Below are positions 5,721-36,088 of a stretch of DNA of 64,000 bases, in pieces. Each line of letters opens with the position of its first letter. The stretch's first letter is position 1. The notes beneath the pieces are model-generated. The model did no database searches. It was given only the letters and a program-made list of their open reading frames with translations, and had not been told where the DNA came from. The DNA comes from Antedon mediterranea (Eukaryota > Animalia > Echinodermata). Position numbers and translations under genes: made by a program. The stretch covers positions 29,264,001 to 29,328,000 of the forward strand of contig NC_092674.1 of the NCBI RefSeq assembly GCF_964355755.1. The letters run 5' to 3'.

Positions 5721-6690
5721 TCATGGATATAGTCTTGTTTTCTCCAAATATAATGGATATGGTATCATCCATATTGTGAGTGTACAACTGCAGAGAGGTT
5801 CTGTTGGTTCTGTCACTACCCGGATGCTTGTATTCCCAGTTGCATGCCAATACATATTAGATACATCACATGTTAAAAGTTGTTGGTCATTTTCCTGACG
5901 AATCTCCCGGATGCAGTATTGATTCGAGTTGTTGTGCATCTCATCTTCCGTACCATTTCTCGACCACAAGTACTCGACATTCAGAAGACTCCCTGCAGTT
6001 ATAGCACAAATGAAGCAAATTAATTTTAATCGATTTTGGAATAATATGGAGAGTATTCGTAAAACATCTTTGCACAGGTTGTTTTGCACTTTCACACATA
6101 AACGAAATATCCGTGTCATTTGTCATAACAGTGTAAGTGTAACTTTGATTTACTGTTTTGAGAAAACGTGTATTACCGTTTCCAACATCGTATAAGTAGA
6201 GTCTCACCTGGTCTGAAAGTTCATCCTCACAAAATACATTCACTAAATCTCCAATACCTGCGGACATAGGTATCGGACCGCAGACTATGTTTGACATACA
6301 TTTTGGAAGAACGACCAAATTTGTAACGTGCATTGTATACAATCCAGAATCTGCCAGGGCAGCATCAGTTATTGTCAGTGTATTGGTTGTGTAATTATTA
6401 TACGTTTCTTTACATTGTTTTATCGACAAACTAAAACGATCTTGACGTAGACCCAGTACATTTGTATTAAATTTATATTGGTAATTCGAAAGCCACAAGT
6501 CAGTACAAAATACACGTATATACCAAAATAGAACGGATTTTTCTCCTGCTGAACAATCAGTACTACATCTCATGGTCACGTTCTCTTCTTCATAAACCGT
6601 GACATTATGCATTACAACATTCACATTACAGGTTACACGATGCAGAGCCGAAATCAAGAATAGCACCACTGACAATGCAAACAACGTCAT
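5721..6690 (-). pseudogene. Ig-receptor family A, copy A1 (disrupted; could yield a truncated secreted product)
   Basis: Paralogous to A2/A3. A 27-nt in-frame deletion at ~6336 removes RCQVVEANY (second Ig Cys). A deletion/frameshift lies at ~6018-6030. The TM and tail are deleted at ~5741-5760. Confidence 0.85.
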
Positions 6691-7539
6691 TATCTTCGAC
6701 TACTGTAGGTATATAACCGTTATAGTTACAAACAATGCTATGATGTTCATTTTTTTTTTAAAGTGAATCAAAACTTACTTTCTATTATAAGAACTGTACC
6801 ATTAGGTACAGTTGGGTTTGTTTGTTCGATAATATTGTTTGTCATGGATAATATAATTTGATCAGTGGCAATCAACCAATATTAAAATGAAACTACTACA
6901 ATAATTACAAAACTAACAATAATGTAGACTATACACGCAATATTGCCTATATATCATAATCATATATTGCATATTTTAATTTATCTAGTAATATTATTAA
7001 TCACGTTTTAAAAGTACTACTATACTATTACGTAATATTACGATACGCAAGAGTTTCTATATTATTAGTTTGTCTTACACGATATGATATCGATATTGTT
7101 ACTGGCATAACATTAAATTTAGAATTATTATAATAGCTACCGTTAACATTGGTTAAATATATGAAAAGTTTCTTAACTTAAAAATAAGAAAGAGTTTAAC
7201 TCCGAATAAAGATAATTTGATATAATCATTATTATCTTATTATTTAAAGCTCGTTGTAATATATACAACATATATAGGTTAAAATATAAGTATAATCATT
7301 CTACAGTATAAATGTGTACATACGTATATAGGCCTATTATGTCATTTATTTGTCAAAATTGTCGTCGTTCGTTAAAATTACCTTGTTTCTTCAAAGTAAT
7401 ATATTATCTACTACCAAACTGGTGTCATGCTGCTCTGGCAACCGATTAACCAAAGAGTAATACGTGTAACAACAGTGAGCAAGGTGGCAGAGTGTAAAGA
7501 AATGTTCAGTTCGTTTTTATCATGGATAGTCTTGTTTTC

Positions 7540-8664
7540 TTACAGTCTACCGTCATATATATCAACAACCTCTATCTGTGCATCCTCTGTGTTGTCAGTA
7601 CATTTGATGTTGTTACACCTCTTACATATCACAATGAGAACAGCTATCATTAAGAAGACTTTGATTATCAATGGTATCATCCATATTGAGAGTGAACAAC
7701 TGCAGAGAGGTTCTGTTGGTCCTGTCACTACTCGGATGCTTGTGTTCCCAGTTGCATGCCAATATTTATTAGATACATCACATGATAGAAGTTGTTGGTC
7801 ACCTTCCTGACGAATCTCCCGGATGCAGTATTGATTTGAGTTGTGCATCTCGTATGTGGTACCATTTCTTGACCACGAGAACTCGACATTCAGAATACTC
7901 CCTGTAGTTATAGCACAAATGAAGCATACTTTATCACCATCGTAGAATGGCGTGTTGTTTAGCGGCAGGACTTGGATCGATGCTGTTTCAATAACATGGA
8001 GAGTATTCGTAAAACATTTTTGCCCTCGTACACTCTCACACATAAACGAAATACTTGTGTCATTTGTCATTACAGTGTAAACGTATCTTAGTGTTTCTTG
8101 GTTTAAGGTTTTGAGAAAACGTGTATTACTGTTTTCAACATTGTACAAGTAGAGTTTCAACGGGTCTGTATGTTCATCTTCACAAAATACATTCACTAAA
8201 TCACCAATACCTGCGGACATAGGTATCGGACCACAGACTATGTTTGACGTACATTTTGGAAGAACGACCAAATTTGTAACGTGCATTGTGTAGTTTGCTT
8301 CTACAACTTGGCATCTATACAATCCAGAATCTTCCTGGGCAGCATCAGTTATTGTCAGTGTATTTGTTGTGTAATTATTGTAAGTTTCAGTACACTGTTT
8401 TACCGACAAACTAAAACGATCTTGACGTTGACCCAGTGCATTTTTGTTAAATTTATATTGGTAATCAGAAAGCCACAAGTCAGTGCAAAATACACGTAGA
8501 AACCAAAATAAAACGGATTTTTCTCCTGTTGAACAATCGGCACTGCATCTCATGGTCACGTTCTCTCCTTCATAAACCGTAACATTATTGGCATCTGCAG
8601 CATTCTCATAACATGTTACACAACGCAAGGCCGAAATCAAGTACAGCACGTACAATGCAAGCAT
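7540..8664 (-). CDS. Ig-receptor A2: single-exon, 3 Ig-like domains, TM with Lys, short tail (374 aa)
   Basis: Signal peptide; V-like D1 (GENVTMRC..W..LTITDAAQEDSGLYRC); two further Cys-paired domains; TM IWMIPLIIKVFLMIAVLIVIC; tail ending DIYDGRL; many NxS/T sequons. Confidence 0.9.
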   Translation of the reverse strand: MLALYVLYLISALRCVTCYENAADANNVTVYEGENVTMRCSADCSTGEKSVLFWFLRVFCTDLWLSDYQYKFNKNALGQRQDRFSLSVKQCTETYNNYTTNTLTITDAAQEDSGLYRCQVVEANYTMHVTNLVVLPKCTSNIVCGPIPMSAGIGDLVNVFCEDEHTDPLKLYLYNVENSNTRFLKTLNQETLRYVYTVMTNDTSISFMCESVRGQKCFTNTLHVIETASIQVLPLNNTPFYDGDKVCFICAITTGSILNVEFSWSRNGTTYEMHNSNQYCIREIRQEGDQQLLSCDVSNKYWHATGNTSIRVVTGPTEPLCSCSLSIWMIPLIIKVFLMIAVLIVICKRCNNIKCTDNTEDAQIEVVDIYDGRL

Positions 8665-9225
8665 CCTGAATTTATCCGACTTGTAGAACCACTATTGTTT
8701 TAGTTACAAAAACTGCTATGATGTTCATTTTATTTCGAAAGTGAATCAAAACATACTTTCTATTATAGGAACTGTACCATTAGGTACAGTTGGGTTTGTT
8801 TGTTCGATAATATCGTTTGTTGGATAATATAATTTGATCAGTGGCAATCAACCAATATTAAAAATGAAACTACTACAATAATTACAAAACTAACAATAAT
8901 GTAGACTATACACGCAATATTGCGTAGGCATATCATAATCATATATTGCATATTTTAATTTATCTAGTAATATTATTAATCACGTTTTAAAAATACTACT
9001 ATACTATTAAGTAAAATTACGATACGCAAGAGTTTCTATATTATTAGTTTGTCTTACACGATATGATAACGATATTGTTACTGGCATAACATTAAATTTA
9101 GAATTATTATAATAGCTACCGTTAACATTGGTTAAATATATGAAAAGTTTCTTAACTTAAAAATGAGAAACAGTTTAACTCCGAATAAAGATACTTTGAT
9201 ATAATCATTATTATCTTATTATTTA

Positions 9226-9536
9226 CGAGTGAGTGAGTGGCCGAGCGGTTACAGTGGAACCGTAATTACGTAGCCATAACATCGGCAGGGGTTCGAGGCT
9301 CCATGGTTCTGGTGGTAGAACGAATCTTCTCGGATAAGGACTATAAACCGTAGGTCCAGTGTACACATAGCTCGTGTGCACTTTAAAGAACCTAGTACAT
9401 CTTTCGAGACGAGTAGGGGGTTACCCCGGTGTATTAGTACATCACAGCCACTGGGCCCTCTGGGAGACCAGTCTTTGACTGAAGAGATTACCCAGTATAA
9501 ATATATATTTCAATCAATCAATTTCAATTCAATTTC
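9226..9536 (+). mobile_element. tRNA-derived SINE with Deu/Nin-like central domain
   Basis: Box A TGGCCGAGCGG, box B GGTTCGAGGC, core ggataaggactataaaccgtaggtcc..gtgcactttaaagaacc, (caat)n-like tail. Absent from the paralogous spacer (empty site tattta|aagctcg at ~7246). Second copy at ~28478-28750. Confidence 0.85.
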
Positions 9537-9844: not shown

Positions 9845-10960
9845 TTACAGTCTACCGTCATATATATCAACAACCTCTATCTGTGCATCCTCTGTGTTGT
9901 CAGTAGGTTTGATGTTGTTACACCTCTTACATATCACAATGAGAACAGCTATCATTAAAAAGACTTTGATTACCAATGGTATCATCCATATTGTGAGTGT
10001 ACAACTGGAGAGAGGTTCTGTTGGTTCTGTCAATACCCGGATGCTTGTGTTCCCAGTTGCATACCAATACGTATTAGATACATCACATGTTAAAACTTGT
10101 TGGTCATCTTCCTGACGAATCTCCCGGATGCAATATTGATTTGAGTTGTGCATCTCGTATGTGCTACCATTTCTCGACCACGAGTATTTGACATTCAGAA
10201 GACTCCCTGCAGTTATAGCACAAATGAAGCATATCTGGTCACCAGCGTAGAATGTAGTTCTATTGATCGGAACAACTTGAATCGATTTTGGAATAACATG
10301 GAGAGTGTTCGTAAAACATCTTTGCACAGGTTGTTTTCCACTTTCACACATAAACGAAATATCGGTGTCATTTGTCGTCACGGTGTAAGTGTAACTTTGA
10401 TTTGATGTTTTGAGAAAACGTGTATTACCGTTTCCAATATCGTATAAGTAGAGTCTAATCTCATCTGAAAGTTCATCCTCACAAAATACATTCACTAAAT
10501 CACCAATACCTGCGGACATGGGGATCGGATTGCAGACTATGTTTGATAGACATTTGGAAAGAATGACCAAATTCAATGTTAACAAAATCGTTGAGTTTGA
10601 AACTGTTATCATTCCACATTTATACCAACCAGAATCTACCTGGACAGCATCTGTTATTGTCAGTGTACTTGTTGTGTAATTATTATACGTTTCATTGCAT
10701 CGCTTTACCGATATATCAAAACGATCTTCTTGAGGCGAGTCCAATATATAATGGTTAAATTCATATCGGTGATCAGAAAGCCACACGTAAATGGAGCCTA
10801 TACGTAGATACCAAAGTAGAACGGTTTCTCCTGCTGAGCAATCTGAACTACATCTCATGGTAACGTTTTCTCCTTCATAAACCGTGACGTTATTCGTTTC
10901 AAAATGTATATGACATGTTACACAAACCAGGGCCAAAATCAAGTATAGCAACATAGACAT
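9845..10960 (-). CDS. Ig-receptor A3: divergent D1, TM with Lys, short tail (371 aa)
   Basis: Same architecture as A2. D1 is diverged (LRIGSIYVWLSDHRYEF..DSGWYKC); D2 resembles A1. Confidence 0.9.
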   Translation of the reverse strand: MSMLLYLILALVCVTCHIHFETNNVTVYEGENVTMRCSSDCSAGETVLLWYLRIGSIYVWLSDHRYEFNHYILDSPQEDRFDISVKRCNETYNNYTTSTLTITDAVQVDSGWYKCGMITVSNSTILLTLNLVILSKCLSNIVCNPIPMSAGIGDLVNVFCEDELSDEIRLYLYDIGNGNTRFLKTSNQSYTYTVTTNDTDISFMCESGKQPVQRCFTNTLHVIPKSIQVVPINRTTFYAGDQICFICAITAGSLLNVKYSWSRNGSTYEMHNSNQYCIREIRQEDDQQVLTCDVSNTYWYATGNTSIRVLTEPTEPLSSCTLTIWMIPLVIKVFLMIAVLIVICKRCNNIKPTDNTEDAQIEVVDIYDGRL

Positions 10961-11342: not shown

Positions 11343-13226
11343 TTATAAATTGTCAGTTTCTTCGTAGTCATTATTAATATGATCCACAACCAAACCGATA
11401 CCATGATCAGGCAACCAATCTTGATATCTTGGTTCCTCTAAAACATGATATAATTGGCCCATCGTCGTATCCACAGATCGCTCTTCTCGAAGCGTGTCGT
11501 CATGAAGTCTTCGATTGTCAATAGGCTGTGACGTCATCTGGTGACGAGTGATTGCAGAATTCTGTTCAGCACTTATTTCATCATCAGGTATTTCTTGATA
11601 TACATTAGTTACGTCATCTGTGGACAATATTTTGTTATCTTTTTCTAACCATGATCTCTGTTCTTCTTTAACGGGTTCAACAACCTGCTGCGGAGTCCTC
11701 GGAGCAAATGAAGATCTCTGCCTTTGTATTCTTCTTCTATCATCGGATATTTCGTTATAAACACGCGATACATTATTTTTCGGGCGAATTGGTACTAACA
11801 ATATCTTGTCTTGTTCATAAACGTGTTCTTGATCTAGTTCACCAAAATGTCTTTTCCGATTATCTTGGATATTGCCATCGAATTCCCGTTCTGGTGACTG
11901 CTGCTCCTGATGCTGTCTACCAACAAGTGAATGATCTTGATTGTTGCTATCAACTTCTTGTTCTTGCTGTTCCTGGTCAAGTGTACTTAAAGGAACTGAT
12001 TGACGATTGCCATCAAATATTTGTGGCTGGTCCTCTTCTTCGACGCCGTGAGTAATTGTATGTGGATGGTTGATTCCATTGTGATAGATATTTTCTGCTA
12101 AAGTGACGCCTGTAGATTCATTCATTTGAATTAATTGTACATTGTCAGTGTTGATCAAGGGTTTAACGCGTATACAACTCTTACAGCATATCGCAAGGAG
12201 CACAACTATTATGACGCAGATGATGACTGGCACAAAGAACCATAACATACGTTTCCATCTTAGTAAATAATGTAAATCTATCACCAGTGTTGTATTTCCA
12301 GTTGCATGCCAATACTTATTAGATACAACACATGTTACAACTTGTTGGTCATCTTCCTGACGAATCTCCTGGATGCAGTATTGATTTGAGTTCTGCATCT
12401 CATCTTCGGTACTATTTCTCGACCAAAAGTACTCAACATCTACAAGACTCCCTGCAGTTATTATGCAAACAAAGCATACTTTATCACCAGCGTAGAATGG
12501 GGTGTTGTTTAGTGAAAGGACTTGGATGGATGTTGTTTCAATAACATGGAGAGTATTTGTAAAACATGTTTGTCCTTGTTTATTTTCACACATAAACGAA
12601 ATATCTGTGTCGTTTCTCGTAACGGTGTAATTGTAACTTAACTCTTTAGTATGGTTTAATATTGTAAGAAAACGTGTACCACCTTTTGTACCGAAATACA
12701 AGTGGAGTGTCAGCTGGTCTGAAAGTTCATCCTTACAAAATACATTCACTAAATCTCCAATACCTGCGGACTTGGGTATAGGACCGCAGACTATGTTTGA
12801 CGTACATTTTGGAAGAACGACCAAATTTGTAACGTGCATTGTGTAGTTTGCTTCTACAACTTGGCATCTATACAGTCCAGAATCTGCCTGGGCAGCATCA
12901 GTTATTATCAGTGTATTTGTTGTGTAATTATTATACGTTTCTTTACATTGTTTTACCGACAAACTAAAACGATCTTGACGTTGACTCAGTGCATTTTTGT
13001 TCAATTTATATTTGTAATCAGAAAGCCACAAGTCAGTGCAAAATACGCGTAGAGACCAAAATAAAACGGATTTTTCTCCTGTTGAACAATCAGCACTGCA
13101 TCTCATGGTAACGTTCTCTCCTTCATAAACTGTAACATTATTCGTTTCAAAATTCACATCACATGTTACACTACGTAGAGACGCCAAGTACAGTATAACC
13201 AACACAAGTGTTCTAGTAAGCGTCAT
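11343..13226 (-). CDS. Ig-receptor A4: long Tyr-rich cytoplasmic tail (627 aa from ATG 13226)
   Basis: Family A ectodomain; uncharged TM MLWFFVPVIICVIIVVLLAICC; ~275-aa Q/E-rich tail with ENIY, EHVY, VYNEI, VYQEI, LYHVL and NDYEE. The first true ATG precedes the signal peptide. Confidence 0.9.
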   Translation of the reverse strand: MTLTRTLVLVILYLASLRSVTCDVNFETNNVTVYEGENVTMRCSADCSTGEKSVLFWSLRVFCTDLWLSDYKYKLNKNALSQRQDRFSLSVKQCKETYNNYTTNTLIITDAAQADSGLYRCQVVEANYTMHVTNLVVLPKCTSNIVCGPIPKSAGIGDLVNVFCKDELSDQLTLHLYFGTKGGTRFLTILNHTKELSYNYTVTRNDTDISFMCENKQGQTCFTNTLHVIETTSIQVLSLNNTPFYAGDKVCFVCIITAGSLVDVEYFWSRNSTEDEMQNSNQYCIQEIRQEDDQQVVTCVVSNKYWHATGNTTLVIDLHYLLRWKRMLWFFVPVIICVIIVVLLAICCKSCIRVKPLINTDNVQLIQMNESTGVTLAENIYHNGINHPHTITHGVEEEDQPQIFDGNRQSVPLSTLDQEQQEQEVDSNNQDHSLVGRQHQEQQSPEREFDGNIQDNRKRHFGELDQEHVYEQDKILLVPIRPKNNVSRVYNEISDDRRRIQRQRSSFAPRTPQQVVEPVKEEQRSWLEKDNKILSTDDVTNVYQEIPDDEISAEQNSAITRHQMTSQPIDNRRLHDDTLREERSVDTTMGQLYHVLEEPRYQDWLPDHGIGLVVDHINNDYEETDNL

Positions 13227-13665: not shown

Positions 13666-15042
13666 TTAATGACTGAGTGTTGTGCAGTATAATTGACCGC
13701 CCTGAGTAGATTTGAAACTATCATTAGAACCAGGCCGAGATACACGCATTCGCTCAATAGTATCCGCATACACGTGTCCTGGATAAGGTGGTTTTCTAAC
13801 TTCGTGCTCTTTGTCAGCTAGCCCAGAGTATTTCTTTTGATCATTCTGACGAACATCATTCTTAATAGTGTCGTAAATCGATTCCTTTCGGTCATTTGAC
13901 TGTCGTTTAAGCTTTCTTGTTTTGGAACAAATCACAACAGCCAGGCACACAATTGTGATTATGAAAACCGTATTAGTTGATAACAACAGAAGTATAATGA
14001 TAAACATGGTTGAAGGATCGGCGAACGTTGGTAGGTTAGAAGTAAGTCCAGTCGTCTGGTCAGATGAAATAAGTATCGGTGTTACCGCAACATTGATGGG
14101 CGCGCTTACAGCTGCATACTGGTGGCGGTGCTTAGTAGACACGTTGCAGAAAATGAGCTCCTTACCATTTGTAGCTTCAACCTCATTGACGCAGTACTGG
14201 TTTGATCCAGGATGCTGGTCATTTTCATGACTTGTTGACCACCAATATTCAACGTCTGTAAAACCTTCTCCACGGATTACGCAGACGAAACACATCCGGT
14301 TGACATCTTGTTGCCAGAGCTGTAGAACTTCAACTATCATCTTCTGGATAATATGCATGTTGTTTGTGACACAACCTCTTTGTTCTTGGTTCCGGTTATT
14401 CACCAGTTCACATACGAAATATACAATAGTATCATCACTGCTAACGGTGTAAACGTGACTTAGCGTCAGGTTTGTAATCTGACGGTTTACTGTCTGAAGT
14501 AAACGCTTTATATGATCTTTCTCGTTAAACGCATACAGATTTAACTCCGTATTTTGGTCTTTACCGTCAGCCACACACGACAAGGTCACTAAATCACCAG
14601 GAACGGCAGATATTGGTACTCGATTGCAGGTTGGATTTTGCAAACACAGATCAACAACTTTGAATTCTATAGAACTTACAGAATTCGTACCAGCAACACC
14701 GCATTGATATACCCCAGCATCGCCTTGATCCGCGCCAGTTATCGACAGTGTACTTGTGATGTTCATTACGTCGTCTGCGTTGCGTTTCTTGTAAACGGAC
14801 ACACTGTAACGGTTTTGGCGGGAATCCAGAAGATCAAGATTCAATTTGTCAAATACATCGACAAGCCACATTTTCCCGGTGTACCATAATATGCTTTCTG
14901 TATTCCCAGAAGACGTGATCGAACAACTGAGAGTCGCCGTTTCTCCTTTGTAAATTTGAAAATCTGGGGTTCGTACAATCTCAACCCCATCTGCATAATA
15001 TATGAACACTAACTGTAGAAATATTTTAGTAACAACTGCCAT
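13666..15042 (-). CDS. Ig-receptor family B, copy B1 (458 aa)
   Basis: Signal peptide; V-like domain (GETATLSC..W..LSITGADQGDAGVYQC); two more Ig-like domains; S/T stalk; TM; tail with SIYDTI, KYSGL, HVYAD and QLYC. Single ORF. Confidence 0.9.
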   Translation of the reverse strand: MAVVTKIFLQLVFIYYADGVEIVRTPDFQIYKGETATLSCSITSSGNTESILWYTGKMWLVDVFDKLNLDLLDSRQNRYSVSVYKKRNADDVMNITSTLSITGADQGDAGVYQCGVAGTNSVSSIEFKVVDLCLQNPTCNRVPISAVPGDLVTLSCVADGKDQNTELNLYAFNEKDHIKRLLQTVNRQITNLTLSHVYTVSSDDTIVYFVCELVNNRNQEQRGCVTNNMHIIQKMIVEVLQLWQQDVNRMCFVCVIRGEGFTDVEYWWSTSHENDQHPGSNQYCVNEVEATNGKELIFCNVSTKHRHQYAAVSAPINVAVTPILISSDQTTGLTSNLPTFADPSTMFIIILLLLSTNTVFIITIVCLAVVICSKTRKLKRQSNDRKESIYDTIKNDVRQNDQKKYSGLADKEHEVRKPPYPGHVYADTIERMRVSRPGSNDSFKSTQGGQLYCTTLSH

Positions 15043-15769
15043 TTTTAAAACAAAAAATTGTTTTTGCTAAATTATATTTCGCAATACGACTACTATCCAG
15101 GTCTCTCGTCCATGGAAAGACAAATGCAACATTGGTTTCTATAAATATTTAAAAGATAATCAAAAGTTATCTTATCTTTTTTTTTATTTCGAAAGCTATT
15201 ATAACTGATTCACTTTCAGATTAGATCAATGGCTATATGCGATTTGTTTAGATAATAATATAGTGTATACAAACAGTACGTACATACAATTATAGGCTAC
15301 ACAATCATTTGTTTTGATGTATTTGTGCGGGCCCTTGTGAAAAAAGTAATGTTATCAAACTGACCTGCGCCAGAGATGGTTTTGATCTTTAAAGAAGACT
15401 AACAAAAGATAAACAATTTAAATGAGTACCGCATCGCATAACTTTGTTTCTTGATTATGTATTATATTAAAAAAATGTAAAATTGCCAAGAACGCTTTTT
15501 TCACACGCATTCGTTTTGTCGCCGTTTTGTTGTTGTAGTTTTTTGACAGCTCATGAATATGTAAAACCAGTTGTTAACACACTAGCGTTGTGTGTGAACA
15601 CACACTAGCATTGTGTGTGAACGCACCTGTATTTGCTTTGCGTTGTAAAAAGACCTTGCTATTTGCAACGCAGTGTATATATACAGCAACTACATCAGTC
15701 CATAGAGATATTATAAAATCTCTTCTCGAGTATCTGAACAAAGAGAGGCAAAAGTTCAAACCGTTTCTC

Positions 15770-16026
15770 AGTACACGGATGTCAGCATCAAGGGAAAAAA
15801 AGCCAGTTTCTTCCCTAAACCGAGTAAGTACTAGGTTACAATAAAAATATAGAGGAAGCAAGCCTAGAATATAGATTGATTCCAATGGTGACAAGAAAGC
15901 AATATTTGGTAAACGATAAATTTTTAGGACCACAATGGAAATAAGTTTGCCGTCTCGGTACTTTTTTGTGTTTTTTATCCTATTGATTTTATATCAGAAT
16001 AAAGGAAAAAAAAAAAATGTGGATCT
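15770..16026 (-). pseudogene. Orphan, decayed copy of the ALG8 terminal exon
   Basis: Encodes IAFLSPLESIYILGLLPLYFYCNLV as in 25703-25964. Its 3' part is deleted and ~90 bp are inserted just after the acceptor. Confidence 0.85.
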
Positions 16027-16438: not shown

Positions 16439-17569
16439 TCAACGGTCATATATGTCAACAACCTCCATCTGTGCATCAACTGTGTTGTCAGTAGGTTTGA
16501 TATTGTTACACCTCTTACAGATCACAATGAGGACAGCTATCATTAAGAAGACTTTGATTACCAATGGTATCATCCATATTGTGAGTGTACAACTGCAGAG
16601 AGGTTCTGTTGGTTCTGCCACTACCCGGATGCTTGTATTCCCAGTTGCATGCCAATACTTATTAGATACAACACATGTTACAACTTGTTGGTCATCTTCC
16701 TGACGAATCTCCTGGATGCAGTATTGATTTGAGTTCTGCATCTCATCTTCGGTACTATTTCTCGACCAAAAGTACTCAACATCTACAAGACTCCCTGCAG
16801 TTATTATGCAAACAAAGCATACTTTATCACCAGCGTAGAATGGGGTGTTGTTTAGTGAAAGGACTTGGATGGATGTTGTTTCAATAACATGGAGAGTATT
16901 TGTAAAACATGTTTGTCCTTGTTTATTTTCACACATAAACGAAATATCTGTGTCGTTTCTCGTAACGGTGTAATTGTAACTTAACTCTTTAGTATGGTTT
17001 AATATTGTAAGAAAACGTGTACCACCTTTTGTACCGAAATACAAGTGGAGTGTCAGCTGGTCTGAAAGTTCATCCTTACAAAATACATTCACTAAATCTC
17101 CAATACCTGCGGACTTGGGTATAGGACCGCAGACTATGTTTGACGTACATTTTGGAAGAATGACCAAATTTGTAACGTGCATTGTGTAGTTTGCTTCTAC
17201 AACTTGGCAGCTATACAATCCAGAATCTGCCTGGGCAGCATCAGTTATTATCAGTGTATTTGTTGTGTAATTATTATACGTTTCTTTACATTGTTTTACC
17301 GACAAACTAAAACGATCTTGACGTTGACCCAGTGCATTTTTGTTCAATTTATATTTGTAATCAGAAAGCCACAAGTCAGTGCAAAATACGCGTAGAGACC
17401 AAAATATAACGGATTTTTCTCCTGTTGAACAATCAGCACTGCATCTCATGGTAACGTTCTCTCCTTCATAAACTGTAACATTATTCGTTTCAAAATTCAC
17501 ATCACATGTTACACTACGTAGAGACGCCAAGTACAGTATAACCAACACAAGTGTTCTAGTAAGCGTCAT
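16439..17569 (-). CDS. Ig-receptor A5: A4-type ectodomain with short Lys-TM tail (376 aa)
   Basis: Ectodomain differs from A4 at 4 residues. After YWHATGNT it switches to SIRVVAEPTEPLCSCTLTIWMIPLVIKV..DIYDR. Confidence 0.9.
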   Translation of the reverse strand: MTLTRTLVLVILYLASLRSVTCDVNFETNNVTVYEGENVTMRCSADCSTGEKSVIFWSLRVFCTDLWLSDYKYKLNKNALGQRQDRFSLSVKQCKETYNNYTTNTLIITDAAQADSGLYSCQVVEANYTMHVTNLVILPKCTSNIVCGPIPKSAGIGDLVNVFCKDELSDQLTLHLYFGTKGGTRFLTILNHTKELSYNYTVTRNDTDISFMCENKQGQTCFTNTLHVIETTSIQVLSLNNTPFYAGDKVCFVCIITAGSLVDVEYFWSRNSTEDEMQNSNQYCIQEIRQEDDQQVVTCVVSNKYWHATGNTSIRVVAEPTEPLCSCTLTIWMIPLVIKVFLMIAVLIVICKRCNNIKPTDNTVDAQMEVVDIYDR

Positions 17570-18011: not shown

Positions 18012-19388
18012 TTAATGACTGAGTGTTGTGCAGTATAATTGACCGCCCTGAGTAGATTTGAAACTATCATTAGAACCAGGCCGAGATACACGCATTCGCT
18101 CAATAGTATCCGCATACACGTGTCCTGGATAAGGTGGTTTTCTAACTTCGTGCTCTTTGTCAGCTAGCCCAGAGTATTTCTTTTGATCATTCTGACGAAC
18201 ATCATTCTTAATAGTGTCGTAAATCGATTCCTTTCGGTCATTTGACTGTCGTTTAAGCTTTCTTGTTTTGGAACAAATCACAACAGCCAGGCACACAATT
18301 GTGATTATGAAAACCGTATTAGTTGATAACAACAGAAGTATAATGATAAACATGGTTGAAGGATCGGCGAACGTTGGTAGGTTAGAAGTAAGCCCAGTCG
18401 TCTGGTCAGATGAAATAAGTATCGGTGTTACCACAACTTTGATAGGCGCACTTGCAGCTGTATACTGGTGGCGGTGCTTAGTAGACACGTTGCAGAAAAT
18501 GAACTCCTTACCATTTGTACCTTCAACCTCATTGACGCAGTACTGGTTTGATCCCGGATGCTGGTCAATGTCACGACTTGTTGTCCACCAATATTCAACG
18601 TCTGTAAAACCGTCTCCACGAATTACGCAGACGAAACACACCCGGTTGACATCTTGTTGCCAAAGCTGTAGAACTTCAACTATCATCTTCTGGATAACAT
18701 GCATGTTGTTTGTGACACAACCTCTTTGTTCTTGGTTCCGCTCATTCACCAGTTCACATACGAAATACACAATAGTATCATCACTGCTGACGGTGTAAAC
18801 GTGGCTTAGCGTCAGGTTTGTAATCTGACGGTTTACTGTCTGAAGTAAACGCTTTATCTGATCTTTCGCGTCAAACGCATACAGACTTAACTCGGTATTT
18901 TGGTCTTTACCGTCAGCCACACACGACAAGGTCACTAAATCACCAGGAACAGCAGATATTGGTACTCGATTGCAGGTTGGGTTTTGCAAACACAGTTCAA
19001 CAACTTTGAATTCTATAGAACTTACAGAATTCGTACCAGCAACACCGCATTGATACACCCCAGCATCGCCTTGATCCGCGCCAGTTATCGACAGTGTACT
19101 TGTGATGTTCATTACGTCGTCTGCGTTGCGTTTCTTGTAAACGGACACACTGTAACGGTTTTGGCGGGAACCCAGAAGATCGAGATTCAATTTGTCAAAT
19201 ACATCGACAAGCCAAATTTGCCTGGTGTACCATAATATGCTTTCTGTATTTCCAGAAGACGTGATCGAACAACTGAGAGTCGCCGTTTCTCCTTTATAAA
19301 TCTGAAAATCTGGGGTTTGTACAATCTCAACCCCATCTGCATAATATATGAACACTAACTGTAGAAATATTTTAGTAACAACTGCCAT
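18012..19388 (-). CDS. Ig-receptor B2 (458 aa)
   Basis: Near-identical paralog of B1/B3 with an intact ORF. Confidence 0.9.
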   Translation of the reverse strand: MAVVTKIFLQLVFIYYADGVEIVQTPDFQIYKGETATLSCSITSSGNTESILWYTRQIWLVDVFDKLNLDLLGSRQNRYSVSVYKKRNADDVMNITSTLSITGADQGDAGVYQCGVAGTNSVSSIEFKVVELCLQNPTCNRVPISAVPGDLVTLSCVADGKDQNTELSLYAFDAKDQIKRLLQTVNRQITNLTLSHVYTVSSDDTIVYFVCELVNERNQEQRGCVTNNMHVIQKMIVEVLQLWQQDVNRVCFVCVIRGDGFTDVEYWWTTSRDIDQHPGSNQYCVNEVEGTNGKEFIFCNVSTKHRHQYTAASAPIKVVVTPILISSDQTTGLTSNLPTFADPSTMFIIILLLLSTNTVFIITIVCLAVVICSKTRKLKRQSNDRKESIYDTIKNDVRQNDQKKYSGLADKEHEVRKPPYPGHVYADTIERMRVSRPGSNDSFKSTQGGQLYCTTLSH

Positions 19389-20263: not shown

Positions 20264-20526
20264 CTGAATGCGCTTATCTTTCTGTGAATGTATCTTCCCC
20301 TCCCGCTTTAATGAATTATAATAAAATTTAAACCAGGCCCATGAAACACCTGCTGCACAGTAGACGGATGTCAGCATCAAGGGAAAGAAAGCCAGTTTCT
20401 CCCTAAACCAAGTAAGTAATGTACTAAGTTACAATACAAATATAGAGGAAGTAAGCCTAGAATAATATAGATTGATTCCAATGGTGACAAGAAAGCAATG
20501 TGTGGTAAATGATACGTTTTTGGATC
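20264..20526 (-). pseudogene. Orphan copy of the ALG8 terminal exon
   Basis: Nearly identical to 25703-25964 with the acceptor intact. It has a 1-nt deletion (ttctccctaaa vs ttctcccctaaa), a 3-nt insertion and TAG changed to CAG. Confidence 0.88.
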
Positions 20527-20828
20527 TCTGTAAAACAATAACAAAACAAACTTTTTGATACAAATTGTTAGTTTTAAAAAGCAATAATCTTTTTATAATT
20601 AATTATGAAAGTGATTGTTAAACAAAACAAAACTATAAACAATGAAACAGGAAGAATAATAAATAAATAAAAACAAAAAGAAGTAGCAGAGCATTAAATA
20701 TTTCAAATTAATTGATCAACATTATTAAAACGTTAACGTTTTTTATTCAATAGATCATACAATATGTAAAAATAAAATAAATTAGAATTCTATATAGGTA
20801 TCAAAAGTAACAATGTTTTTACATTGTT

Positions 20829-21665
20829 TTTATTTATTTTTATTTATTTTATTTATTTAATCGGTATAAAAAGACTCAAAATACAACTCATAGTTGAAAT
20901 GAAGAGCTTACATATGAAAATGATAATTCACATAGCCTAAACAAAGTTAAACGAAGAAAAAACACATTAAAGCCTAAGAAACAGTAATAATTACTGTATA
21001 ATTCGTTAAACTTAAAATTACTATAAAAAATGCACAAATTCTTAAATATACAATTTTAAAAAATAGAGACTAATATTAATAATCACATTATTTTTAAACA
21101 CCAATAAAATATATGTAAAATTCATTAAACTAAAAGTACAATAAAAATTGCACAAAATTCAAATTCAAAGGATGATATTAATAATTACAAATTCTTATAT
21201 TATATTTACAAATTTAAAAAATTGAATCTTATAAATCACATTTTTATAGTCCCATAAGTAGTTACAAAAAAAAATTTAAAGCATAAAACAACCACTTGAC
21301 AAAGAGACAATAGAACATACTCTTCGAAATGTCTTTAAAGGTTAATTGTCCAAATCTATTCATTATTTAAGAGTCCAATAACAGTTGGAATTGTTGATGC
21401 AGCAAGTCTTTTAGTCCGACATCGTGGCACATCAAACTTATTAACTTTACGCAAACACCTTGTCGGCTTTTCTTTTTCAGGGATCCATTCCTTAAAGCGA
21501 TCCGACTTTAGCAGCCCCTTTCCAAAGTTATAAAGAAGAACCTGACGTCTATGCTGCAATGTCTTTAACTTGAGGGTTTCAAGTGATTTTGCGTAACTAA
21601 CATAGTTTTGATATCCAATAATAAGTTTTACAACACGCTTTTGGATGAATTCAAGTTGATCACTC
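20829..21665 (-). mobile_element. 5'-truncated non-LTR retrotransposon (CR1/L2/Crack-like ORF2 C-terminus, 3' UTR, (TAAA)n tail)
   Basis: Peptide LEFIQKRVVKLI..Y..SL..LKL.TL..RR..PRCRTKR..STIP..LLN. The tttat repeats at 20830-20859 form the tail. Flanked by tgttt on both sides; empty site attgtttattcacttcag at ~16241. Confidence 0.85.
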
Positions 21666-21859
21666 TGTTTATTCACTTCAGAAATCTGACCAATCATTGG
21701 TTGTTTTAAAGTCATGTGATAAATGTAAATGATCTGAATGATCACGTGTAAATTACATACATTAAACAAGAAAGAGTTTTAAAGTTTAATAGTGAGCAGT
21801 TAGGGTGTAAAGGAATGATAAATTTCAGTTCGTTTTTATCATAGTTGTTGTTTTCTTAG

Positions 21860-22990
21860 TCAACGGTCATATATGTCAACAACCTCCATCTGTGCATCAA
21901 CTGTGTTGTCAGTAGGTTTGATGTTGTTACACCTCTTACAGATCACAATGAGGACAGCTACCATAAAGAAGACTTTGATTACCAATGGTATCATCCATAT
22001 TGTGAGTGTACAACTGCAGAGAGGTTCTGTTGGTTCTGCCACTAACCGGATACTTGTATTCCCAATTGCATGCCAATACTTATTAGATACATCACATGTT
22101 ACAAGTTGTTGGTCATCTTCCTGACGAATCTCCTGGATGCAGTATTGATTTGAGTTCTGCATCTCATCTTCGGTACTATTTCTCGACCAAAAGTACTCAA
22201 CATCTACAAGACTCCCTGCAGTTATTATGCAAACAAAGCATACTTTATCACCAGCGTAGAATGGGGTGTTGTTTAGTGAAAGGACTTGGATGGATGTTGT
22301 TTCAATAACGTGGAGAGTATTTGTAAAACATGTTTGTCCTTGTTTATTTTCACACATAAACGAAATATCTGTGTCGTTTCTCGTAACGGTGTAAATGTAA
22401 CTTAACTCTTTAGTATGGTTTAATATTGTAAGAAAACGTGTACCACCTTTTGTACCAAAATACAAGTGGAGTGTCAGCTGGTCTGAAAGTTCATCCTTAC
22501 AAAATACATTCACTAAATCTCCAATACCTGCGGACTTGGGTATACGACCGCAGACTATGTTTGACGTACATTTTGGAAGAACGACCAAATTTGTAACGTG
22601 CATTGTGTAGTTTGCTTCTACAACTTGGCAGCTATACAGTCCAGAATCTGCCTGGGCAGCATCAGTTATTATCAGTGTATTTGTTGTGTAATTATTGTAA
22701 GTTTCATTACATTCTTTTACCGACAAACTAAAACGATCTTGACGTTGACCCAGTGCATTTTTGTTAAATTTATATTTGTAATCAGAAAGCCACAAGTCAG
22801 TGCAAAATACGCGTAGAGACCACAGTAGATTGGATTTGTTTCCTGCTGAACAATCTGAACTGCATCTCATGGTAACGTTCTCTCCTTCATAAACCGTGAC
22901 ATTATTCGTTTCCACATTCTCATCACATGTTACACTACGCAGAGACGTCAAGTACAGTATAATCAACACAAGTATTCTAGTAAGCGTCAT
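21860..22990 (-). CDS. Ig-receptor A6: short Lys-TM tail (376 aa)
   Basis: Paralog of A5 with a variant D1 N-terminal patch (CSSDCSAGNKSNLLW). Confidence 0.9.
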   Translation of the reverse strand: MTLTRILVLIILYLTSLRSVTCDENVETNNVTVYEGENVTMRCSSDCSAGNKSNLLWSLRVFCTDLWLSDYKYKFNKNALGQRQDRFSLSVKECNETYNNYTTNTLIITDAAQADSGLYSCQVVEANYTMHVTNLVVLPKCTSNIVCGRIPKSAGIGDLVNVFCKDELSDQLTLHLYFGTKGGTRFLTILNHTKELSYIYTVTRNDTDISFMCENKQGQTCFTNTLHVIETTSIQVLSLNNTPFYAGDKVCFVCIITAGSLVDVEYFWSRNSTEDEMQNSNQYCIQEIRQEDDQQLVTCDVSNKYWHAIGNTSIRLVAEPTEPLCSCTLTIWMIPLVIKVFFMVAVLIVICKRCNNIKPTDNTVDAQMEVVDIYDR

Positions 22991-23421: not shown

Positions 23422-24798
23422 TTAATGACCGAGTGTTGTGCAGTATAATTGACCGCCCTGAGTAGATTTGAAACTGTCATTAGAACCAGCCCGAGATACA
23501 CGCATTCGCTCAATAGTATCCGCATACACGTGTCCCGGATAAGGTGCTTTTCTAACTTCGTGCTCTTTGTCAGCTAGCCCAGAGTATTTCTTTTGATCAT
23601 TCTGACGAACATCATTCTTAATAGTGTCATAAATCGATTCCTTTCGGTCATTTGACTGTCGTTTAAGCTTTCTTGTTTTGGAACAAATCACAACAGCCAG
23701 GCACACAATTGTGATTATGAAAACCGTATTAGTTGATAACAACAGAAGTAGAATGATAAACATGGTTGACGGATCGTCGAACGTTGGTAGGTTAGAAGTA
23801 AGCCCAGTCGTCTGGTCAGATGAAATAAGTATCGGTGTTACCAAAACATTGATGGGCGCACTTGCAGCTGCATACTGGTGGCGGTGCTTAGTAGACACGT
23901 TGCAGAAAATGAACTCCTTACCATTTGTACCTTCAACCTCATTGACGCAGTACTGGTTTGATCCCGGATGCTGGTCAATGTCACGACTTGTTGTCCACCA
24001 ATATTCAACGTCTGTAAAACCGTCTCCACGAATTACGCAGACGAAACACACCCGGTTGACATCTTGTTGCCAAAGCTGTAGAACTTCAACTATCATCTTC
24101 TGGATAACATGCATGTTGTTTGTGACACAACCTCTTTGTTCTTGGTTCCGCTCATTCACCAGTTCACATACGAAATACACAATAGTATCATCACTGCTGA
24201 CGGTGTAAACGTGACTTAGCGTCAGGTTTGTAATCTGACGGGTTACTGTCTGAAGTAAACGCTTTATCTGATCTTTCTCGTTAAACGCATACAGATTTAA
24301 CTCCGTATTTTGGTCTTTACCGTCAGCCACACAAGACAACGTCACTAAATCACCAGGAACGGCAGATAGTGGTACTCGATTGCAGGTTGGATTTTGCAAA
24401 CACAGTTCAACAACTTTGAATTCTATAGAACTTACAGAATTCGTACCAGCAACACCGCATTGATACACCCCAGCATCCCCTTGATCCGCGCCAGTTATCG
24501 ACAGTGTACTTGTGATGTTCATTACGTCGTCTGCGTTGCGTTTCTTGTAAACGGACACACTGTAACGGTTTTGGCGGAAACCCAGAAGATCAAGATTCAA
24601 TTTGTCAAATACATCGACAAGCCAAATTTGCCCGGTGTACCATAATATGCTTTCTGTATTCCCAGAAGACGTGATCGAACAACTGAGAGTCGCCGTTTCT
24701 CCTTTGTAAATTTGAAAATCTGGGGTTCGTACAATCTCAACCCCATCTGCATAATATATGAACACTAACTGTAGAAATATTTTAGTAACAACTGCCAT
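23422..24798 (-). CDS. Ig-receptor B3 (458 aa)
   Basis: Near-identical paralog of B1/B2 with an intact ORF. Confidence 0.9.
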   Translation of the reverse strand: MAVVTKIFLQLVFIYYADGVEIVRTPDFQIYKGETATLSCSITSSGNTESILWYTGQIWLVDVFDKLNLDLLGFRQNRYSVSVYKKRNADDVMNITSTLSITGADQGDAGVYQCGVAGTNSVSSIEFKVVELCLQNPTCNRVPLSAVPGDLVTLSCVADGKDQNTELNLYAFNEKDQIKRLLQTVTRQITNLTLSHVYTVSSDDTIVYFVCELVNERNQEQRGCVTNNMHVIQKMIVEVLQLWQQDVNRVCFVCVIRGDGFTDVEYWWTTSRDIDQHPGSNQYCVNEVEGTNGKEFIFCNVSTKHRHQYAAASAPINVLVTPILISSDQTTGLTSNLPTFDDPSTMFIILLLLLSTNTVFIITIVCLAVVICSKTRKLKRQSNDRKESIYDTIKNDVRQNDQKKYSGLADKEHEVRKAPYPGHVYADTIERMRVSRAGSNDSFKSTQGGQLYCTTLGH

Positions 24799-32193: not shown

Positions 32194-35171
32194 TGTTACC
32201 ATTGTACCATTTTGTGCAGTAAAGTTCCATTTAACGTAGCCTACATGAAATGTGACAGTACATTATGTAAGGCCTATTTATTGTTTAGGTTTCACCGTGC
32301 ATGTTCAACTTCTTCCTATGAAACGCACAGTTGTTATTTTAAAATGTCCCGGGAGGCTTGTGAGTCAACATGAAACACTTTTTGTCATCTTTCTTTCTGG
32401 ATCGAGTGGGACCACTATTACATGTTGTGTTTTGTACTAATTTTTTAAACGTGCGTAATCGTTGGTGGTCGCTACTAATAAATTTAACATTATTTACAAT
32501 TTTTATATATGTGCAATAATGATTCGTCACTCACAGAACACTGTTATAATTATGGTGTAAATAGCCTTTTAATTTCTTACGCAAGTGCAAGTACTTTTAC
32601 GTTTAGCAAAGATCAATATTAAAGGCTAATTGAGCTTCGACATCAATAAATATGCTAGGCCTACTCCTTGATCCTTTGCAAGCTGTATTGAAATATATCT
32701 ACACGTGATGCGAGACCCAAATTCAAATATCGTATTGCTAGTCTAGATAGCTTGTTAGTGAACAAATAAGCATCATTTGTTCTTGTTCTAAGTGAAGTTC
32801 AATTCTTCTTTGATGACGTCACTATGGCTTTAACTGAGTTGGTGACATTAAATGCAATGAAGATGAAGAATCCTTGAAGTGAGTTCAGAATCGTGTAGAT
32901 GAACCACAATACAACGTGATCTACGTACGCTGCAATGAATCCAAGACACCATGTCACCCCCATGACTGTCGAAATCTGCAAAAAAAAACATTAACAAATA
33001 GTATCATTATTTTGTTAATAATGTACGGTAGAGGCTAGCTACGAAAGTATCGTTAAGTGGGAAAGCTTTACGTATTCCTAACTCAATATGATATGAAATA
33101 GTTTCCTTAATGTAGGCATATTAAGTGGCTCTGAGACTTTTGGTGAATTTTCAATCTCCTAGTGCCGTTTGAACATTATTAAGGAAGTATTGAGAAACGT
33201 CAGTTCTGTAATCTCTAATCTGGACTGGAAGTCAAAATCTGTTTGTCACAATAACCATTGCAGTTGTATATTGATGAAGAAGGGTTAATGGTAAAATGGA
33301 ATTCATTATACAACCATGCAAAAACTTACCCTTATGTAAATGATAATTTCTTCCGTCAGTTGCTGTTTTTTCGACTTATCACCATTGACAACCGAAGTTG
33401 TTTTCTTCGTCTCTCTGATTCCTGTAATTGTTGCAACAAATAGTATCAGGTTGGGCAGAATGATCACAGCTAACGGGATACCGAACCAGTAGAGATTAGC
33501 GAGTTCATCTCGAATCCAGCAGATTGTATCATCACCGTATCTGACATTCACACCAGTGCAATCACAGTAAATCAAGCCTACGATGATACCTACGTATATT
33601 GATGGCACTCCCCAACTGTAGATATTGTAAAAGATGAAAGATGTTCGCTGCGATGCCTTGCTTCTTGCTGACGTTCTAAAAAACATGAATGTTCGGAAAA
33701 GTTCAAATGCTAACGTGTTCATCCAAAGGAAACAAGAAAGCCATATGAAATGAAGGAATACTGCCACAATCTTGCAAGCTAACTTCCACTTGATGAACGA
33801 GTTTTGAAAAGTAGTCATCAACAAACCACAGAACAAAGATATTGAAATATTCATAATGATCTTTCCACAAAGTGTTCTTAATTCCTTAAACATCATACGG
33901 AAAATAATTGTAATGAAGAGACCAACAAGCGACAAACTGATTCCTACAATATTGATAATGTTAAGGTATACATTATCTTTATTTTCCATGAATTGTTTTG
34001 GTAAATTCTGTGATTCAGAATTGTTAAGAAAGGTACAGACGCCGATACTACTATTTGTATCATCTGATACAATATAATCCATCTCTTCAAATATCTTTCC
34101 ATTATACTTATAAACTAGAGTTCCGTTGCCATGATTCATAAAAGCTGATGAATCCAGATAAATCAGGGAACACACGTCACAAGTCAATACCGATAGACTA
34201 CTATAGACGTAACTAGACTCATTTCCAAACTGGTGGACAACTTCCAACACATACTCTTCATCAGGAATTTCAGCAGAAAGGTTACCGTAACGTAAATTTC
34301 GCGTAGAATTGTCAAAACTCTCAAAAAGATCGTCTGTGAGCGTAAACACGTCAAAGTCACATGATGGGTATTCGGGAATAATTTTAAGTGAACAATTCTG
34401 CCGAATGATCACCAGTCGTATAAATACTGTCGCACAACTTACAGCATTTATTGACACTTCTAAATTGGTCATATTTGCATATTCTATCACGTGATGTGAA
34501 TAGCTCATACCACTGTCATTTAGATGCCCTATGAAGACTTCTACAGCTACAAATTTATTCTCTTCCTTCACATATTGAAAGGCAACATGTATTGAATGGT
34601 TTAGAAGCTCGCATAAACAGTAGATTTCTTTTGGTGTATGAATAGCCTTCGTTTCGCAACCTGAAGAAGTCAGTAGGCCTACTGAAGGAACACATGTTGA
34701 GCCTTCATACGTAAAACTAGGTTTACAAGAAATCTGAAGTTGTATACACTCTCCAGAGAACGGGTCAACAAACACTTCTTCTGCAGCACATGTGTTTATT
34801 TCTGTAATAGAAGCTTGCGTACTACTAGACGTCTGCACACTAATGCTGTTTTGAGTAGAAAAATCAAATATGATGGTTAATGGACTAAATGGTGGAGCTT
34901 CTCCATGTAGGTCATCATCACCATAGCAATTGGAAATTGAAGATTTAGACCTAAGCGTATAATTGTTGCAAATGACAATATGTGGACTGAAGTATGGGAT
35001 ATCATTACGGTAAATAACAGCCTTATACGTTTACATGTCGAATCCGAAGAATTGGAGCAAACGATTTTAGCCTTCGGGTTACACACTCTTCTGTTATCCG
35101 TTTTACCGGGCGGTGGAGTAAATTCAATATTTCCACATTTAACAGCCTGGTCTATTGTATCTAATGCGTCA

Positions 35172-35277
35172 GATGATGATGATTCGGATGATGATGATGA
35201 TCCAGATGATGATGATCCAGATGATGATGATGATTTAGATAGTATAACAAATGCATATGATGATGACGATGATGATG
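35172..35277. repeat. (GAT/TCA)n microsatellite encoding poly-Ser in GPCR copy 1
   Basis: Runs of gatgatgat; the matching region of copy 2 (~42682-42710) is short. Confidence 0.9.
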
Positions 35278-36088
35278 GTAAATGACAGTTGAATGTCGTT
35301 TTCCACGCAAACACGTTCTGTAAAGGAACACCATTACACAATGCACAGTACACATTCTTGTAAATATTGTTATCTGTATCGGAAACGATAACCTTTAAAA
35401 GAATGTTATCCGGATCAGGATTTTCACATTTGGCAATGGTCTCAGTATCGACTGAACTATCGCATAAAGCAATTGTATAGTATCCGGCGGCCCGAATGTC
35501 AAACGACGATCCGCGTTCCACACATTTGAGACGGTTAGAATCTGCTGTCAATGTAAACGTAACATTTGGTCTGCACGCGGTCACATAGTCGTAGCAACAG
35601 TCACCATAGTATTCACACGCCGCATCACAACCACAATCATCCTCCTCCAACGTACGGAGCCAAGCCACATTTTGTAATGTTATCTCTTCTATTTACACAG
35701 TTATGTGTCAGAGGACATTTCACGTCATCAATTAGTTCTAAATAATAATATTTAAAAGACATTAATGTATTACAAATTTTTTTATATGTGAACTTTATTC
35801 AATCAATCGTACATTTGTTATAATGGTAACCACAATAAGGTATAATATTACAGTAGATTTTTACAAACAAAAAAAACAAGACCAATAAAAATATAAATTA
35901 TAAAATATATACAATGATTATTTACAGTAATGATAAAAATAAAAATTAATTGTTTATATTGACTATTATTGGAAACAGAAGTTGAATAATAAAATACTGG
36001 AAAGTTTAGTTAGAGGTTTACAATCAATGGAAAAGATGAAAACATATAATATTGTATCTTGAAAGAATTTCATTTAGCTTCGATTTTG

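Follow-up and report, generated by a model that had tools for sequence, protein, structure and literature searches.

The locus described here raises the question of how a cell-surface receptor can signal when its only transmembrane helix holds a lysine in its core and its cytoplasmic tail has no docking motif. It lies in a 64,000-nucleotide stretch of the crinoid Antedon mediterranea (contig NC_092674.1, positions 29,264,001 to 29,328,000), called the window below, and consists of a tandem array of uninterrupted open reading frames (ORFs) on the minus strand, between 5.7 and 24.8 kb, which make up two families of receptor genes, A (A1-A6) and B (B1-B3). Each intact A or B ORF encodes a signal-peptide-like start, three immunoglobulin (Ig)-like domains, one hydrophobic helix and a tail, and the Pfam models ig, Ig_3 and V-set match these ORFs above cut-off. 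Four genes, A2, A3, A5 and A6, are intact, intronless ORFs for short-tailed receptors with the helix lysine, and A4 is their long-tailed sister gene. Reasoning from these sequences and from vertebrate receptors, we favour the reading that, in a paired receptor family, the short-tailed A proteins would form an arm of the activating type that depends on a partner, and we hold the chances that this is so to be evenly balanced. The sequence-level hallmarks of an activating-type design, a basic residue in the helix core and a short tail without docking motif, are present in all four proteins, as an earlier note on this DNA had proposed.

The helix lysine and the short tail

The helix that the earlier note had described for the short-tailed genes, IWMIPL(I/V)IKVF(L/F)M(I/V)AVLIVIC, was found in the ORF translations of all four, and the stretch 7600-7700 to which it had pointed takes in the A2 helix, its lysine codon (7660-7662) and part of the tail. 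With a signal peptide, Pfam Ig matches and one helix, these are type I membrane proteins with an Ig-like ectodomain. The lysine is residue 9 of the 21-residue helix and the single basic residue inside its hydrophobic core, as in the vertebrate activating-type design, and the differences among the short-tailed copies of the helix are conservative only (I/V, L/F). Whether it is 19, 21 or 23 residues long, the best hydrophobic window includes the lysine and ends at the cysteine before KRC; with the lysine counted, the 21-residue window has a Kyte-Doolittle mean of 2.8-2.9 and a Wimley-White octanol energy of -13.8 to -14.7 kcal/mol.

Between the lysine and the cytoplasmic KRC there are only 12 hydrophobic residues, which are too few for a bilayer, so that the membrane must also take in 8-10 hydrophobic residues N-terminal of the lysine. 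At 1.5 Å per residue, simple geometry would put the alpha-carbon of the lysine about 18 Å away from the inner boundary and about 12 Å away from the outer, which we infer to be beyond the reach of a snorkelling lysine. The AlphaFold2 model of A2 is of low confidence (mean pLDDT 52.6, below 50 in the third domain) and was used for the extent of the helix only; in it, helix 329-351 encloses Lys335. As far as the sequence tells, the lysine is thus placed within the helix core, and the position at the membrane interface that the earlier note had set against its own proposal is not what we find.

The membrane-proximal stalk just before the helix (about 7696-7704 in A2) has one cysteine in A3, two (CSC) in A2, A5 and A6, and none in A4. 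These are possible sites for interchain disulfides, within a dimer or with a partner.

After the helix, the short-tailed genes continue with the cassette KRCNNIK(C/P)TDNT(E/V)DAQ(I/M)EVVDIYD, followed by GRL and a stop in A2 and A3 or by R and a stop in A5 and A6. The tails measure 27 residues in A2 and A3 and 25 in A5 and A6, and the 28-31 residues given previously have to be revised downwards. Each tail does have the one terminal tyrosine that had been noted, but this tyrosine does not form a Yxx(L/I/V) motif: it is followed by two residues in A5 and A6 and by DGRL in A2 and A3. A motif scan of the short tails found no ITIM (immunoreceptor tyrosine-based inhibitory motif), ITSM (switch motif) or ITAM (activation motif) and no Yxx(L/I/V). 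On the predicted ORFs, the tail is therefore short and motif-free, as in the activating-type design, with a heptamer resembling a splice donor at the end of the helix.

It could be argued that the lysine is simply tolerated without a partner, and that the short-tailed proteins would be signal-poor decoys competing with A4 for ligand, or would signal autonomously through the juxtamembrane cysteines and the acidic C-terminal tyrosine. The helix is strongly hydrophobic despite its lysine, as the octanol energies given above show, and the position in the outer half would make partial snorkelling possible. CKRC flanks the cytoplasmic end with two cysteines, and the stalk adds one or two more. The juxtamembrane cysteines are possible sites of palmitoylation. 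The window, moreover, yielded no partner. Against such tolerance stands the depth of the residue, about 12 residues from the inner boundary and with an amine that would also be out of reach of the outer interface, as does the tyrosine of A5 and A6, which has no residue at +3. In vertebrates, such residues are reported to mark assembly sites nearly always (PMC4536121), and we regard a tolerated lysine as unlikely.

A4, the paired design and the wider family

Over 314 residues, the ectodomains of A4 and A5 are 98.1% identical, with 3 synonymous and 7 non-synonymous differences and a dS of 0.015, and the DNA similarity of A4 to A5 and A6 in BLASTN stops sharply at 12290. From there on, the amino-acid identity between A4 and the short-tailed genes is only 26-34%, measured over 38 residues of helix and tail start. 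The A4 helix LWFFVPVIICVIIVVLLAICC aligns without gaps to the short-tailed helix, with an isoleucine (ATC) opposite the lysine and with the W, CKxC and KP kept. The A4 tail has 279 residues and seven tyrosines, those of YHN, of two VY(N/Q)EI(S/P)DD repeats (YNEI, YQEI) and of YHVL among them. Because the ectodomains are near-identical, the helix and tail cassettes anciently diverged, and the basic residue and the truncation confined to one of them, A4 and the short-tailed genes form, at the level of sequence, a paired-receptor architecture, in which A4 would be the inhibitory arm.

The A4 helix and tail (11343-12289, minus strand) are single-copy in the window. A GQLY motif is common to the A4 tail and to the B tails, near the end of the latter, hinting that the long tails of A4 and B may be of common origin.

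Judged by substitution rates, the A genes are under purifying selection: the ratio of non-synonymous to synonymous rates (dN/dS) of the ectodomain lies at 0.28-0.61 in 17 of the 18 comparisons between domains of two genes; only A5 against A6 in D3 departs from this, with a value of 1.04 that comes from just five differences. Sliding-window identity between A2 and A5 is 94-97% in domain 1 and 67-84% further on, and the helix and tail cassette is 92-97% identical among the four short-tailed genes, a mosaic that therefore points to repeated gene conversion. In a related species, runs X6 and X7 gave one contig each over 7500-7702, with 14 differences, none of them in the lysine codon; the helix part holds 3 synonymous differences and one V-to-I change. 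The contigs of this species also overlap parts of the A4 tail.

An exhaustive HMMER search returned 84 proteins at E<=0.001, 10 at <=1e-10 and none at <=1e-30. Five of the matches that cover most of the ectodomain are crinoid proteins, with 25-29% identity and E values of 4.9e-11 to 8.1e-05: XP_033103746, XP_033099054 and XP_033099058 of Anneissia japonica, and XP_071951796 and XP_071966121 of Antedon mediterranea. They have the architecture of A and B and, across the three Ig domains, a cysteine framework in common with them. Eight ectodomain cysteine columns are invariant in 10 sequences (C135, C155, C211, C225, C260, C263, C294 and C309, the CFxC motif included), and C42 and C109 are kept in 9 of the 10. 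Three Ig domains, the common cysteine framework, the helix and the tail thus place the genes of the array in a crinoid three-Ig receptor family. Taken by themselves, these crinoid matches make an echinoderm origin of the DNA probable. Unlike the short-tailed A proteins, all five relatives have long tails (59-265 residues) and an uncharged helix core. The wider family has, by motif consensus, immune-type tails; the tail of one crinoid relative (P0021) holds three ITIM and one ITSM consensus matches.

Among the 19 HMMER matches with a clear transmembrane window, two have a charged helix-core residue, in both cases arginine and both from one teleost. A word-indexed protein search with A5 left none of 950 candidates at E<=0.001, and the same search with the family profile brought up two already known crinoid proteins and one ray protein only. 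No orthology to a named vertebrate receptor family (KIR, LILR, SIRP, Siglec, CEACAM) is visible: the best matches, at no more than 30% identity, are for the most part hemicentin- and titin-like multi-Ig proteins and generic structures of the immunoglobulin superfamily (IgSF). Neighbours in the ESM Atlas fall into mixed generic IgSF clusters, and a PDB profile search gave generic IgSF matches only.

Candidate partners and the reality of the tail

The position of the lysine, the short tail and the pairing with A4 are read from the sequence; for assembly and signalling, our guide is the rule reported for vertebrates, by which a positively charged helix residue pairs with ITAM-bearing subunits (PMC4536121, PMC4016189). 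By this rule, the lysine would be unfavourable in the bilayer without a partner, and an acidic or polar helix residue of a second membrane protein would mask it and so permit surface expression. Binding of ligand by the Ig domains would then act through the tyrosine motif of the partner on Src- and Syk-type kinases, and A4 and the B proteins would signal via their own tails. A Syk-type kinase is on record in echinoderms, as sea-urchin SYK accessions (PMC13344425). Within the favoured reading, our tentative candidate for the partner is a small adaptor with an acidic helix; some other protein would be an unlikely occupant of this place.

Several points weigh against this reading. A search with an ITAM regular expression and for an acidic residue in a hydrophobic 21-mer found no ORF in the 64-kb window that combines an acidic helix with an ITAM. 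Homologs of the DAP12 family are reported absent in ascidians (PMC11507803), and the gamma chain of the Fc receptor (FcR-gamma) is reported as not found in sharks or lamprey (PMC4016189); because of these reported absences, homology between the vertebrate adaptors and any partner here is improbable. The design of buried lysine and short tail was seen at this locus and in one related species only, and in none of the five crinoid relatives. The motif scan of the A4 tail gave no match to a canonical ITIM. The dS of the cassette is low (0.03-0.17), consistent with recent gene conversion, and with 17 changes over 171 cassette sites a neutral lysine codon would escape change with a probability of about 0.77, which falls to about 0.64 when the copy of the related species is added. 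The identity of the lysine across copies is weak evidence alone, because the cassettes are recent copies, and what carries the argument is the paired design and the presence of a buried lysine in a gene under selection, not the statistics of conservation. The last of these points concerns the heptamer GTAAGAG, which resembles a 5' splice site. It has five copies in the window, all on the Cys-Lys-(Arg/Ser) codons that end the helix of A2-A6, and it is written in rare codons (AAG is 1 of 13 lysine codons in A2, and there is one AGG codon per short-tailed gene). It may be a relic exon end or one still in use, and an alternative tail made by splicing would tell against a motif-free receptor.

Two weak matches to an acidic 21-mer, at 50210-50272 and 834-896, lie in frames of 56 and 43 codons without ITAM; they were judged to be chance and set aside.

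The heptamer could mean that the short tail is an annotation artefact, GTAAGAG being a donor to other cytoplasmic exons; alternatively, the genes could be silent recent duplicates, A1 being a pseudogene already. None of the sequencing runs recorded as RNA covers the locus; the contigs of run X5, which may be RNA, are thin and patchy and gave no information on splicing or transcript ends. That the heptamer occupies equivalent codons in five of five cases, and is kept in two cassettes (A4 and short-tailed) that have no mutual BLASTN similarity, speaks for the artefact, but its count in the window is at chance level, with 5 observed against 5.9 expected. The amino-acid similarity between A4 and the short tails also extends beyond the heptamer for about 17 residues (KPLINTDNVQL against KPTDNTEDAQI), and read-through is therefore old and coding. 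Silent genes are hard to reconcile with a dN/dS below 1, which argues for expressed, selected genes. Taken together, these points make an artefact or silent genes improbable.

The short tail itself looks real from the sequence, because two independent stops fall at nearly one place (TAA in A2 and A3, TGA two codons earlier in A5 and A6), because GTAAGA, which overlaps the stop of A2 and A3, is absent from A5 and A6 through a 5-bp difference, because AATAAA follows the stop in three of the four genes (190 nucleotides downstream in A2, 189 in A5 and 187 in A6, with none in A3), and because the comparison of A2 and A3 with A5 and A6 shows no conserved block beyond about 70 nucleotides after the stop. 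Two candidates were rejected on this ground: GTAAGA at the A2 and A3 stop as a conserved donor, since A5 and A6 lack it, and a hidden tail exon common to the short-tailed genes, because the DNA downstream of these genes contains neither a conserved block nor any copy of the tail of A4 or of B.

The neighbouring B receptor has also been considered as the signalling partner. The A lysine would form hydrogen bonds with a polar Ser-Thr-Asn-Thr (STNT) cluster of the B helix, and the signal would come from the tail of B, as in the fester/FcoR pairs of Botryllus. The helix of B1-B3 is a long hydrophobic segment around this cluster, and no protein of the window other than B has a polar cluster within its helix. 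All three B tails carry SIYDTI, an ITIM consensus, and the ITAM-like YDTI-x11-YSGL, the same first tyrosine serving both. With the ITAM defined as Yxx(L/I)-spacer-Yxx(L/I), the spacer being 6-9 residues in the narrow form and 6-12 in the broad one, 46 matches were found over the six frames of the window, and the only ones in the frame of a gene are the three B tails. B genes further alternate with A three times (B3-A6, B2-A5, B1-A4), and the motif-less receptors of Botryllus are reported to be encoded in pairs with type I co-receptors that have an ITIM or a half-ITAM (hemITAM) (PMC11507803). Yet the 11-residue spacer of the B tails fits only the broad definition and falls outside the 6-9 consensus used for Hydractinia (PMC9546547), and Pfam gave no ITAM match in them at E<=1. 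The B helix lacks an acidic residue, and its polar cluster is 2-5 residues further out than the A lysine. Segmental duplication of a B-A unit accounts for the alternation; no B gene adjoins A2 or A3, and the neighbour of B1 is the lysine-free A4. We thus consider B a quite unlikely partner.

A different role would be that of auxiliary subunit of a multi-pass protein, be it a transporter, a channel or a G-protein-coupled receptor (GPCR), as for basigin, embigin and neuroplastin, and it appears to us a poor prospect. The common design of Ig ectodomain, charged helix residue and short tail would suit it. Neuroplastin in its PMCA complex is also the top Foldseek match of the A2 model (9gtb_B, E 1.2e-11, TM-score 0.24-0.27), a match that is weak since the model is of low confidence and any protein with Ig domains and a helix would be expected to match. 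Proteins of the basigin family have a conserved helix glutamate, not a lysine as here. No specific sequence similarity links them to A, the PDB profile matches being generic IgSF. An array that duplicates fast, includes a long-tailed form as counterpart and shows a mosaic of gene conversion is moreover typical of immune-type receptors and not of chaperone subunits. We retain the partner-dependent, activating-type receptor as the favoured reading for the comparison below.

The locus and its place among known receptor systems

The features of the array are collected in Table 1.

Table 1. Receptor genes of the array and the signals within them; positions count from the first letter of the window.
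Feature	Position	Strand	Details
A2, short-tailed three-Ig receptor, 374 residues + stop	7540-8664	-	ORF and translation; Pfam ig 4.1e-10, V-set 7.9e-09
A2 helix	7624-7686	-	
A2 Lys335 codon	7660-7662	-	AAA
A2 tail	7543-7623	-	
A2 stop	7540-7542	-	TAA
A3, short-tailed receptor, 371 residues	9845-10960	-	helix 9929-9991; Lys332 codon 9965-9967
A5, short-tailed receptor, 376 residues	16439-17569	-	helix 16517-16579; Lys339 codon 16553-16555; stop TGA
A6, short-tailed receptor, 376 residues	21860-22990	-	helix 21938-22000; Lys339 codon 21974-21976; stop TGA
A4, long-tailed sister gene, 627 residues	11343-13226	-	helix LWFFVPVIICVIIVVLLAICC at 12183-12245; Ile codon ATC 12219-12221
A1, pseudogene	5721-6699	-	two overlapping ORF pieces; frameshift
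B1, three-Ig receptor, 458 residues	13666-15042	-	helix region 13924-14004; YDTI-x11-YSGL 13819-13875
B2, architecture as B1, 458 residues	18012-19388	-	ITAM-like stretch 18165-18221
B3, architecture as B1, 458 residues	23422-24798	-	ITAM-like stretch 23575-23631
GTAAGAG, splice-donor-like heptamers	7619-7625, 9924-9930, 12178-12184, 16512-16518, 21933-21939	-	
AATAAA, poly(A)-signal-like hexamer	7345-7350	-	190 nucleotides past the A2 stop

The A and B proteins are 33% identical, and the A proteins are 69-79% identical to A2. According to the alignment, a deletion in A1 has removed the tail as well as the second half of the helix, and this deleted form recurs as a contig joint in run X5, another sample from the same organism. 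The duplicated B-A units are unequally spaced because repetitive elements intervene between A and B units, at 15574-15993 and 20380-20592 (both on the minus strand) and at 21356-21778; these elements have no Pfam match and a high run depth. Another repeat, at about 9220-9520, is covered in each of the four runs by contigs whose depths sum to about 50,000-490,000, and its loose contig ends resemble the head of a tRNA-derived short interspersed nuclear element; an ARAGORN tRNA scan of the window called no tRNA, there or elsewhere.

The window is AT-rich animal DNA with about 34% G+C, and genes with several exons are found at its edges (ALG6/ALG8, MIT_C, a CH-domain gene and a CCDC158-like coiled coil). 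It also contains two tandem copies of an adhesion-GPCR-like gene on the minus strand (33306-35692 and 40751-43249), with a somatomedin B domain and a secretin-family seven-transmembrane domain (7tm_2), one of them with a long poly-Ser stretch. A protein search with this GPCR-like sequence gave a single amphioxus match, which was uninformative. Between the two copies, at 39082-40208, a 60-nucleotide unit forms a tandem array of 18.8 copies with 96% matches that is open in several frames.

A search of open-access papers and preprints turned up no account of echinoderm paired receptors with a buried lysine, which is not proof of their absence. The division of activating immunoreceptors into a chain that binds ligand and one that signals is described as fundamental to the immunity of jawed vertebrates, and little is known of the ancestry of the signalling subunits (PMC4536121). 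It is possible, if rather doubtful, that this locus represents a split immunoreceptor design built independently in a non-vertebrate deuterostome, in which the chain with the tyrosine motif would be either an acidic-helix adaptor unrelated to DAP12, FcR-gamma or CD3-zeta or the interleaved B protein, and in which A4 would be a counter-receptor kept matched to A5 by gene conversion. With B as the partner, the locus would encode both halves of the receptor plus the long-tailed counter-receptor A4. Were the split design confirmed in an echinoderm, it would either predate vertebrates or be convergent wherever receptor families diversify under opposing selection, and the lysine helix would offer a concrete bait for the first non-vertebrate signalling adaptor.

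The closest parallels are the vertebrate paired IgSF receptors that couple to DAP12 or FcR-gamma, namely KIR2DS/KIR2DL, SIRP-beta/alpha, Siglec-16/11, PILR-beta/alpha and zebrafish Nitr9. Common to them and the A genes are a type I Ig ectodomain, a single lysine at about residue 9 of a 21-residue helix, a short motif-free tail, and a sister gene whose ectodomain is near-identical, whose homologous helix is uncharged and whose long tail bears tyrosines. The tandem arrangement of A with mosaic gene conversion of the ectodomain also compares with what is reported for SIGLEC11/16 (PMC5701461). The A genes differ in that they have no orthology to these receptors, their Ig similarity being generic and at most 30%, in being intronless, and in a long-tailed A4 that has no canonical ITIM; their adaptor is a predicted one, of a kind whose vertebrate family is reported absent outside vertebrates.

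Among invertebrate systems, the fester and FcoR proteins of Botryllus schlosseri resemble A in that motif-less receptors are encoded in pairs with type I ITIM/hemITAM proteins, and for this animal, which lacks DAP12, the authors proposed a solution of the adaptor type (PMC11507803, PMC12065747). They belong to different protein families, for which no sequence relation to A would be expected, and the words charged and lysine do not occur in these two papers; a charged-helix rule is not known for fester. Hydractinia Alr (PMC9546547) and oyster CgIgIT2 (PMC11999971) are reported as tandem IgSF families with activating- and inhibitory-type tyrosine motifs, and it is the B genes that resemble them; in these families the motif is on the receptor's own tail, whereas the short-tailed A proteins have a buried lysine and no motif.

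Basigin, embigin and neuroplastin, finally, share with A the Ig ectodomain, a charged helix residue and a short tail, together with the fold-level match of a low-confidence model. Their helix residue is acidic, not basic. They also lack specific similarity to A and are not tandemly expanded paired families. By analogy, the short-tailed A receptors would work like DAP12- and FcR-gamma-coupled receptors without belonging to any of their families.

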